From positions 684,769-748,768 of the forward strand of contig OZ244779.1 in assembly GCA_965219575.1 (NCBI GenBank): a stretch of DNA of 64,000 nt, in the 5' to 3' direction. This document shows, in pieces, positions 59,384 to 60,550 of the stretch. The stretch's first letter is position 1. The number at the start of each line of letters is the position of its first letter. Origin of the DNA: Candidatus Oxydemutatoraceae bacterium. GTDB taxonomy: Bacteria; Pseudomonadota; Gammaproteobacteria; Poriferisulfidales; Oxydemutatoraceae. The notes under the pieces were generated by a model. It was given only the letters and a program-made list of their open reading frames with translations, was not told the origin of the DNA and did not search any database. Position numbers and translations under genes: made by a program.

Positions 59384-60550
59384 TTAGGCTTTTAATCGTA
59401 GTGCTTCGCGGATAATCTCTTCCACCGTTTTGCCTTTGGTGTCCACCTTTTTAATCAGACTTTTTGCTTCGCCGGATTTGTAGCCGAGTGCGATTAAAGC
59501 CCCGGATGCAGCTTGCGATTGGTCGCTACGAGCGTCGGTCGCGGTTGCAGCGGAACTTTGCCAAAACTCGTCCTTAAAGCGATCCTTCATCTCGACAATC
59601 AGTCGTTGTGCCGTTTTCACACCTATCCCGGGCAAATCGGACAATGCGCCTACATCTTCGTTTTCTATCGATTGTCTGAATATATCCTCTTCCATGCCGG
59701 AGAGAATTGCCAGTGCCATTTTAGCATCGACACCGCGCACCTTGCGCAATTCTTTGAACAAGGGTTTATTGAGTATATCAAGTGCCCTCTCTGCAATCAT
59801 CTGATCGATGATTCCGTCGGCTTTGACCTGTGCGTAATTGCGTACCCTACGAAGCAGGTGTTTGGCGATACGCGGCCTGCCGCGTGAACGGCGGGCAATT
59901 TCAAAGGCACCTGCTTTGTCTATAGCCACATTAAGTATATTTGCATGGCGTTTTACGATTTGCGCGAGTTCTCCTTTTTGGTAAAAGTCCAGCCGCAGGG
60001 TTATGCCGAAGCGGTCTCGCAAAGGTAAAGTACGCAAACGGTTGCGCCAACGGTTGAGTGTTGTTCCCCCGACTAAGGTGAATGGTGGCAACTCGAGTTT
60101 AATCGAGCGTGATGCCGGACCTTCGCCGATAACGATATCCAACTGAAAATCCTTCATTGCAGGGTAGAGTATTTCTTCTATGGCAGGATTGAGGCGGTGA
60201 ATCTCGTCTATAAACAATATCTCTTTGGGTTCTAAGTTGGTCAGTAGGGCGGCGAGGTCGCCGGCTCTCTCTAAAATGTAGCCGTCGGTTTGCCGAATTT
60301 TAACATCTATTTCGTTGGCGATAATATGTGCGAGCGTTGTTTTGCCTAAACCGGGATGCCCGACAATTAATACATGGTCTAATGCGTCGCCCCGTTCTTT
60401 AGCTGCCGAGATAAATATATCCATCTGTTCTTTGACCGAAGATTGTCCTATATAGTCTTTTAATCGATGAGGACGCACATCGTCGTCAATTTGTTTTTCT
60501 TCGGCTATCGGGTCGCCGCGCAATAACGAGTTGTTCGTCTCTTCATCCAT
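59384..60550 (-). CDS. RuvB(aa 1-260)::RuvA(aa ~68-195) chimeric protein
   Basis: N-part paralogous to adjacent ruvB, C-part paralogous to adjacent ruvA; in-frame junction ~59770 ([13 protein letters not shown]). Confidence 0.9.

Follow-up and report, generated by a model that had tools for sequence, protein, structure and literature searches.

Chimeric genes born at the boundary between the two units of a tandem duplication are, to our knowledge, well known in bacteria as fleeting laboratory variants, and cases that are old, fixed and still open have rarely been documented. The closest described examples are nusG'-'sigH and rplK'-'sigH of Staphylococcus aureus, in-frame chimeras from a tandem duplication of 1,210 bp that left the parental genes intact; these are reported as recent and reversible laboratory variants with identical copies, selected for expression (PMC3486894). 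Here, we describe an open reading frame (ORF) of 388 amino acids (aa) that joins the ATPase part of RuvB to the second and third domains of RuvA. It begins with ATG and lies at 59384-60550 on the minus strand of a 64,000-nucleotide stretch (the window) of contig OZ244779.1 (positions 684,769 to 748,768, assembly GCA_965219575.1) from a Candidatus Oxydemutatoraceae bacterium, in the gene order ruvC, ruvA, chimera, ruvB. The chimera spans the junction between the head-to-tail units of a tandem duplication, with intact parents on both sides and an in-frame fusion at the unit boundary. With about even confidence, we regard its predicted product as a tolerated, catalytically crippled by-product whose reading frame has been kept, and not as a branch-migration motor.

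Both parental genes are complete. Native ruvA (60572-61159, minus strand, 195 aa) carries RuvA_N, HHH_5 and RuvA_C and scores 199 bits with TIGR00084 (cutoff 85), and native ruvB (58313-59362, minus strand, 349 aa) carries RuvB_N, the lid and the RuvB_C head and scores 539 bits with NF000868. Between and within them run direct repeats of 300 nt (89% identity, spacing 1188) and 277 nt (85% identity, spacing 1176), which nucleotide alignments extend into two full units. Unit 1 (59768-60955, minus strand, 1,188 nt) holds ruvA codons 69-195 with the stop codon, a 21-nt spacer and the RuvB-like codons 1-261 of the chimera. Unit 2 (58592-59767, minus strand, 1,176 nt) holds the RuvA-like chimera codons 262-388 with the stop codon, the other copy of the 21-nt spacer and codons 1-257 of native ruvB. 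The ancestral unit was 1,176 nt in length, comprising ruvA codons 69-195 with the stop codon, the 21-nt spacer and ruvB codons 1-257. Two spacings are seen because of a 12-nt insertion in the chimera; the offset of 1188 bp given in the first-pass annotation, made from the sequence alone, is correct only 5' of this insertion and does not give the size of the original unit.

Over 1,176 aligned positions the two units show 111 differences, of which 26 fall among the 386 positions of the RuvA part, 4 among the 21 of the spacer and 81 among the 769 of the RuvB part. A repeat of 1.2 kb at 90.6% identity is far beyond chance. The alignments and the minus-strand ORFs bear out much of the first-pass description, namely the gene order, an intact and diverged in-frame fusion born by a tandem duplication that included the spacer, and the presence between the copies of no stop, no frameshift and a single in-frame indel adding four residues. 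This indel is the 12-nt insertion at 60047-60058 (minus strand), which encodes LNRW between the TT of sensor 1 and the arginine-finger helix of the chimera. It resembles a local tandem duplicate of the next 12 nt (CTCAACCGTTGG beside CGCAACCGTTTG) in a short hairpin-forming stretch (60032-60058, minus strand) where a stem-loop is listed at 60047-60032. Several clustered base changes in the same stretch may stem from one templated event rather than from independent substitutions.

At the duplication junction (59765-59770, minus strand), codon N261, the last derived from RuvB, is followed by K262, the equivalent of RuvA K69, with ...CTCAAT of ruvB joined to AAA... of ruvA. The only homology between the ruvB and ruvA breakpoints is a 2-nt 'AT' microhomology. 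The layout reported at first pass is therefore right in outline, and its limits shift from RuvB 1-260 and RuvA ~68-195 to RuvB 1-257 (261 aa with the insertion) and RuvA 69-195. Of the two 21-nt spacers, the one between ruvA and the chimera (60551-60571, minus strand) is a copy of the ruvB leader, and its counterpart between the chimera and native ruvB (59363-59383, minus strand) was delimited by alignment; a clear Shine-Dalgarno sequence is found in neither copy. As the leader and start codon of the chimera are copies of those of ruvB, and as it sits inside the operon, the chimera is probably transcribed and translated like ruvB.

This anatomy resembles that of the S. aureus sigH chimeras in its unit of about 1.2 kb, its short or minimal junction homology, its fusion at the unit boundary and its intact flanking parents. 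A further likeness lies in the start signals of the downstream partner, which drive the fusion in S. aureus (PMC3486894) and would do so here as predicted from the copied leader. Unlike in those variants, the copies described here are 9.4% diverged, the duplication has become fixed in the population and its age is about that of a species split, and the chimera joins parts of two subunits of one machine.

In the chimera, the Pfam domains run in the order RuvB_N (aa 25-187), AAA_lid_4 (190-260), HHH_5 (265-323) and RuvA_C (350-386), and neither RuvB_C nor RuvA_N was matched in the same scan. The scores of RuvB_N (236.6 bits) and AAA_lid_4 (93.9 bits) identify a RuvB-type P-loop ATPase domain with its lid. 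The protein also passes both RuvB equivalog cutoffs (NF000868, 358 against 282; TIGR00635, 320.5 against 299), so annotation pipelines would call it RuvB and genes of this kind would be hidden in databases. The RuvB profile match ends at position 250 of 330, which leaves out the C-terminal winged-helix head; in Wald et al. (2022; PMC9477746), DNA binding is placed in this head domain together with the DNA-binding arginines, and the first-pass proposal that RuvB's DNA-binding head had been swapped for RuvA domains II and III agrees with this and with the Pfam order. From the RuvA side, the profile match begins at position 71 of 202, leaving out domain I. This domain serves tetramerisation and junction recognition.

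The chimera retains domains II (HHH_5) and III (RuvA_C) of RuvA in unequal states. HHH_5 scores 47.5 bits, compared with 54.3 bits in native RuvA, and the first helix-hairpin-helix motif (HhH1) has a G to D replacement with which its PF00633 match is gone (36 bits at residues 71-91 in the native protein); the second HhH is intact. RuvA_C scores 39.9 bits, and the last 47 residues, which make up domain III, are identical to those of native RuvA, with 0 replacements and 3 synonymous differences. With the RuvB head and RuvA domain I both absent, the predicted protein can serve neither as a motor for branch migration nor as a specific binder of junctions; ATP binding, and docking on RuvB by way of domain III, could still be within its reach. 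A structure model of the chimera had a mean pLDDT of 70.1 and a low-confidence stretch at 162-184. This loop was considered as a sign of damage by the insertion and then dropped, as a control model of the native RuvB N-part from a similarly shallow alignment was equally poor at 161-184.

The extent to which the ATPase half still evolves as a RuvB was gauged from 20 native RuvB N-parts of the family and order. Their identity to the RuvB of this genome is 63-96%, and 112 of the 261 columns in their alignment are invariant. The chimera has changed at 14 of these 112 positions, and any native sequence, when left out, at 0-3. Random placement of its ~35 replaced positions among 257 would give ~15 hits on invariant columns, and because the observed rate is about the random one, RuvB-specific constraint is, by this measure, gone from the RuvB half of the chimera.

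Individual residues separate into those acting within a subunit and those acting between subunits. The cis-acting ATP-binding residues are kept, including Walker A K70 and T71, Walker B D115, R26 and the sensor-2 Arg, and the arginine finger and presensor-1 hairpin region are present. Residue E133, one of the 14 family-invariant positions changed, has become Lys. By a numbering offset of +5, which fits Arg21/R26, Lys65/K70, Thr66/T71, Asp110/D115 and Arg218/R223, it corresponds to the Glu128 of Wald et al. (2022), a trans-acting residue that senses Arg21 and engages the arginine finger and whose mutation gave a growth defect, according to that work (PMC9477746). Moreover, the segment from the sensor-1 TT to the finger helix (native RAGLLTS) has been rebuilt by the four added residues and four replacements, a T to R change adjoins the sensor-2 Arg, and a P to H change lies within the Walker A loop. 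The chimera is thus like RuvB, as characterised in Wald et al. (2022; PMC9477746), in its large and small ATPase domains, Walker A and B motifs, Arg21, sensor-2 Arg, arginine finger and presensor-1 hairpin region. It is unlike RuvB in lacking the head and in the 14 invariant residues replaced, and with Lys at E133 and an altered pre-finger loop it does not have the full set of RuvB catalytic and trans-acting residues. The suggestion made at first pass that it might be a single-chain junction-binding ATPase is not supported, given the combination of no RuvA domain I, a damaged HhH1, Lys in place of the Glu128 equivalent, the enlarged and altered segment before the arginine-finger helix and the changes at 14 of 112 invariant RuvB positions.

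A trivial explanation for such a gene would be an assembly artefact in which the ruvAB alleles of two strains were stitched in tandem, and the copies do differ from each other about as much as from the nearest species, as a strain mixture could give. Seven public runs of four studies contain the stretch, none of them an RNA run, and one run per study (X1, X3, X6 and X7, one of which may be the source of the assembly) was examined over 58200-61300. Unitigs of all four runs cross the junction at 59768/59767 with 0 mismatches (59639-60194 in X1 and X3, 59668-60194 in X6 and 59680-59926 in X7), and the assembly chimera of strains feared at first pass is refuted by this bridging. Depth over the chimera is that of its flanks (365 against 372-379 in X1, 34 against 27-33 in X3 and 50 against 59-60 in X6), and the short contigs end at 31-mers common to both copies, as a repeat would give. 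Furthermore, the chimera is also present in X6, which represents a different strain (21 differences in 443 nt of ruvA/ruvC). A join of ruvB codon 257 to ruvA codon 69 could not be created by mixing alleles, and the 14 changes at family-invariant sites are found in no native allele. An artefact is thus so improbable that it can be set aside.

The same runs reveal exchange between the copies. X1 is otherwise identical to the window, and at 59528-59550 (minus strand), in the linker between the RuvA-like domains II and III of the chimera, all nine copy-distinguishing bases are in the native ruvA state. Eight flanking markers stay chimera-type, which limits the patch to between 23 and at most 116 nt. 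Gene conversion from the native copy to the chimera is therefore directly visible in one strain, and X6 shows the native state at three scattered sites. Within the genome of the window itself (G000), no conversion tracts were detectable, the longest identical run between the copies being 47 nt (P = 0.66) and difference counts in successive intervals being near Poisson.

For dating, codon alignments were made of G000 and four other species of the genus, all four without the chimera. By the Nei-Gojobori method, the chimera and native ruvB differ with a non-synonymous divergence (dN) of 0.072, a synonymous divergence (dS) of 0.275 and a ratio (omega) of 0.26, compared with an omega of 0.075 and a dS of 0.226 between native ruvB and its orthologue in the nearest species, G003; the omega of the chimera is about 3.5-fold higher than that of native ruvB. 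The RuvB part of the chimera has a dS of 0.277 to G003. For the RuvA part, comparing the copies with each other gives a dS of 0.185, and comparisons with G003 give 0.24-0.25, including 0.251 between the orthologues. Parsimony-informative sites group the native copy with the chimera at 7+4 sites, the native copy with G003 at 4+4 and the chimera with G003 at 1+2, so that totals of 11, 8 and 3 leave the three-way split unsettled. As the dS between the copies is close to that between orthologues and the informative sites do not separate the three lineages, the age of the duplication is about that of the nearest species split.

Counts along branches, which use inferred ancestors, give 24 synonymous and 33 non-synonymous changes in the RuvB half of the chimera (omega about 0.42), against 18 and 7 on the native ruvB branch (omega 0.12; Fisher p = 0.017). 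In the RuvA half, 8 synonymous and 7 non-synonymous changes fall on the chimera (omega 0.26), and 6 and 3 on native ruvA. Transitions outnumber transversions about 4:1 at synonymous third positions, a strong bias, and once this bias is allowed for, the non-synonymous deficit is borderline and the effective omega is nearer 0.6. An omega of ~0.4-0.6 in the chimera indicates constraint that is relaxed, not absent. Of the outcomes considered at first pass for the dN/dS of each half, a value near 1 is not what is seen, and neither has constraint of the RuvB type been retained.

Relaxed constraint and a patchy distribution are also what a purely neutral relic would display, that is, a pseudogene-in-waiting that has stayed open by luck. 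The absence of stop codons alone accords with such a relic, the neutral probability of no stop being ~0.19-0.22 over the RuvB half, 0.61-0.63 over the RuvA half and about 0.12-0.14 over both together, which is not small. The indels tell a different story. Intergenic alignments of G000 and G003 (942 aligned bases) contain 73 substitutions and six indels, five of them not multiples of 3, and at this rate the 72 substitutions on the chimera branch would be accompanied by ~4.9 frame-breaking indels where 0 are seen (Poisson P about 0.007, with a range of roughly 0.16 to 1e-5, as the expectation rests on six intergenic indels). The deficit of non-synonymous changes in both halves and the existence of a second open chimera with the same junction likewise argue against a neutral relic. 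Taken jointly, no stops and no frame-breaking indels have a probability of order 1e-3, so the open frame is unlikely to have persisted by chance, which points to selection for the frame and makes a purely neutral relic quite improbable.

The distribution of the chimera is narrow. In six-frame searches, a match spanning the junction was found in one of five genomes of the genus, one of 19 of the family and one of 41 relatives, this genome alone each time. Among 5.8 billion protein clusters, scored on residues 232-300, two of 253 candidates of 213-679 aa have the junction, one being the window's own protein and the other a protein designated P0002. When 1.84 billion representatives were queried with the lid and HhH, one match fell below 1e-30, the query's own; by Pfam, the order lid-then-HhH was found in none of the eight two-stretch matches among the best 150 nor in P0265, all of which are RuvA-then-RuvB fusions, lid duplications or fragments. 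A literature search found no paper on a natural RuvB-RuvA fusion, and the rarity of the layout supposed at first pass is thus supported. The closest named RuvB to the chimera, at 74% identity, comes from a metagenome-assembled genome labelled Gammaproteobacteria. Among the other genomes of P0002's RuvB cluster, no chimera of 213-679 aa was found, and a search for shorter proteins was dominated by RuvB fragments of other organisms, at least 120 of them, which would mask broken chimeras as well as the native RuvA of P0002's genome.

Scans with a degenerate DNA pattern of the junction, which may leave out the window's own record, hit one genome-contig locus and three metagenome-contig loci. These candidates were rejected, as all four ORFs are unrelated to RuvA and RuvB and match by chance through DMFNKPFFKEF; we take them to be ORFs resembling the P-protein subunit of glycine cleavage. 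Four other metagenome ORFs (P0025, P0266, P0325 and P0334) do combine RuvA and RuvB domains in one protein, as the chimera does, but with the RuvA part first, as in the gene order. In P0334 (330 aa), RuvA_N is directly followed by RuvB_N and the lid, an order of HHH_5 before RuvB domains also occurs among these ORFs, and none has the lid before HhH. These may be read-through, frameshift or deletion products of adjacent ruvA and ruvB genes.

P0002, of 459 aa and recorded in ENA, reads ...ALDMLN followed by KALYKEL... at its junction, which is at the same position as in the chimera of the window. Its N-terminus runs upstream into a further RuvA-C piece, with a loss of ~13 codons that include the stop, the spacer and the start. 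The full-length RuvB proteins P0006 and P0124 have a longest contig of the same length as that of P0002, 2,610,925 bp, and the genome of P0002 seems to encode two slightly different full-length RuvB proteins besides its chimera. Together, these features suggest that the array is unstable and has more than two units, as in arrays that undergo concerted evolution.

Whether the two chimeras share an origin is a question on which tree and junction disagree. In a tree of RuvB N-parts, the chimera of the window falls in the clade of its own genome (support 91/83 within 97/96) and P0002 in its own (95/96), and monophyly of the two chimeras is rejected (approximately unbiased (AU) test, p = 0.0003). 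Independent origins in two clades would account for this grouping of each RuvB half with the native RuvB of its own clade, for the patchy distribution, and for the divergence in G000, which is even along the unit and without conversion tracts. They would not readily account for identical junction codons, since with a parental microhomology of only 2 nt two independent events at the same codons are improbable. The G to D change common to both HhH1 motifs, the other changes at the same sites, the native-to-chimera patch in X1 and the array-like locus of P0002 also tell against them. The better fit is a single origin after which the chimera and the native copies were homogenised, as each chimera resembles the ruvB of its own genome and the junction is common to both, which points to concerted evolution; two origins appear unlikely.

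The chimera arose by an illegitimate joining at the 2-nt microhomology, which placed ruvB codon 257 in frame next to ruvA codon 69, with a domain boundary on either side of the join. The resulting duplication of 1,176 bp within the ruvA-ruvB operon is old and fixed, and intact ruvA and ruvB have stayed alongside it. For what followed, we favour the by-product reading at the even confidence given above. Substitutions at subunit-interface and trans-acting sites would have rendered the product harmless to RuvB hexamers, and the frame would have been kept open since a nonsense or frameshift mutation upstream of ruvB may lower ruvB expression by polarity or yield a harmful fragment. Occasional gene conversion from the native copies, of which the patch in X1 is an example, would keep the chimera similar to the genes of its own genome. 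Any residual activity would be exerted through the intact domain III, which could occupy the RuvA-docking site on RuvB.

Several observations weigh against a crippled by-product. Since recombination readily removes tandem repeats, the long persistence in two clades hints at a benefit. Domain III is perfectly conserved, and selection for an open frame would not by itself predict an omega below 1; neutral simulations (kappa 4-6) produce as few non-synonymous changes as observed, or fewer, with a probability of 0.02-0.03 in the RuvB half and 0.03-0.04 in the RuvA half. The second genome, with its identical junction, contributes the remainder. P0002 shares the HhH1 G to D change with this chimera, has the same two residues changed (A89 to D and P91 to Y here, A89 to E and P91 to H in P0002), and likewise carries an indel within the sensor-1 loop and a replacement next to sensor 2. 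Chimera-specific positions, 31 here and 21 in P0002, overlap at 6 of 238 columns (hypergeometric P = 0.04), and the N-terminal tail of P0002 reads as a frameshift followed by a compensating shift.

These points would be met by a selected accessory protein, a headless AAA+ module tethered to RuvA domains II-III and kept because it modulates RuvAB, which we consider possible, although doubtful. Such a protein might occupy the presensor-1 hairpin site of RuvB through its domain III, or might enter or cap RuvB rings as an ATP-binding subunit unable to activate its neighbour, much like the modulator co-assembling with RuvB hexamers suggested at first pass. In both cases branch migration or fork reversal would be tuned. 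In favour of it are an omega below 1 in both halves, an ORF intact despite about 72 substitutions, a domain III with silent changes alone (three, and 0 replacements), the retained cis-acting ATP-binding residues, the same junction with partly parallel changes in a second clade, and full depth in four runs of four studies, including the diverged strain X6. Against it are the replacement of RuvB-invariant positions at the random rate (14 of 112), omega tests that are borderline under transition bias, and the finding of the chimera in one of five genus genomes and one of 19 family genomes and, as a protein of 213-679 aa, in none of the others of P0002's RuvB cluster. In its strongest form, held only tentatively, this explanation would make the chimera a headless, hydrolysis-uncoupled RuvB module with its own RuvA domain III, selected as a new RuvAB subunit that regulates or caps RuvB motors. 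An equally tentative extension is that two or more clades of a gammaproteobacterial genus not yet in culture have kept it, with a few special sites under selection and the rest homogenised by conversion.

The locus offers a dated natural junction gene (dS about 0.27) inside a core recombination operon. Visible here are a constraint that is relaxed but non-zero, gene conversion between the copies among sister strains, and a second clade that has the same junction. If the product is made, it would constitute a natural experiment on RuvAB, in which a headless ATPase body with a changed trans-acting Glu is permanently tethered to the RuvA domain controlling nucleotide exchange. It could then show how the contact between RuvA domain III and RuvB, and the signalling between subunits, tolerate or exploit a defective subunit.

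Two side observations concern ruvAB in relatives. In two sister families of the same order, f3 and f4 (within G020-G039), none of the 11 small genomes of 0.9-1.2 Mb gave a RuvB or RuvA match to the query, and family f2 gave a match in 11 of 11 genomes; the f3 and f4 genomes may be reduced genomes that have lost ruvAB. Additionally, the RuvB of some close relatives (P0003 and P0009/P0130) appears truncated or split by a frameshift near the head in some metagenome assemblies, and these breaks may be sequencing errors in long-read assemblies.

Upstream of the duplication, the row begins with ruvC (61156-61701, minus strand), preceded in the ORF listing of the window by yebC (61653-62396, minus strand). 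The listed ruvC ORF begins at TTG, and translation probably starts at an internal codon, the M of MQRILGIDPG; orthologous ruvC ORFs lie upstream of ruvA in four loci of the same genus. A scan for promoter-like and terminator-like sites found 6 of the former (6.9 expected) and 11 of the latter (5.9 expected, standard deviation 3.1), and no internal promoter or terminator is claimed from it. Downstream of ruvB, tolQ, tolR and tolA follow in turn on the minus strand. The ruvB-tolQ intergenic region (58093-58312) is 5.5% diverged from the nearest species, with 12 substitutions and one indel in 220 nt, and because this is lower than at the synonymous sites of the flanking genes, the region is probably a conserved regulatory one. 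The ORF at 55942-56982 (minus strand), taken as tolA from its position after tolQ and tolR, contains a long run of imperfect repeats rich in Glu, Lys, Arg and Gln (EEQRRIAEEKQRQL... units). Extra off-diagonal matches appear when it is aligned to the nearest species, suggesting that the number of repeats in this tolA-like ORF probably varies.

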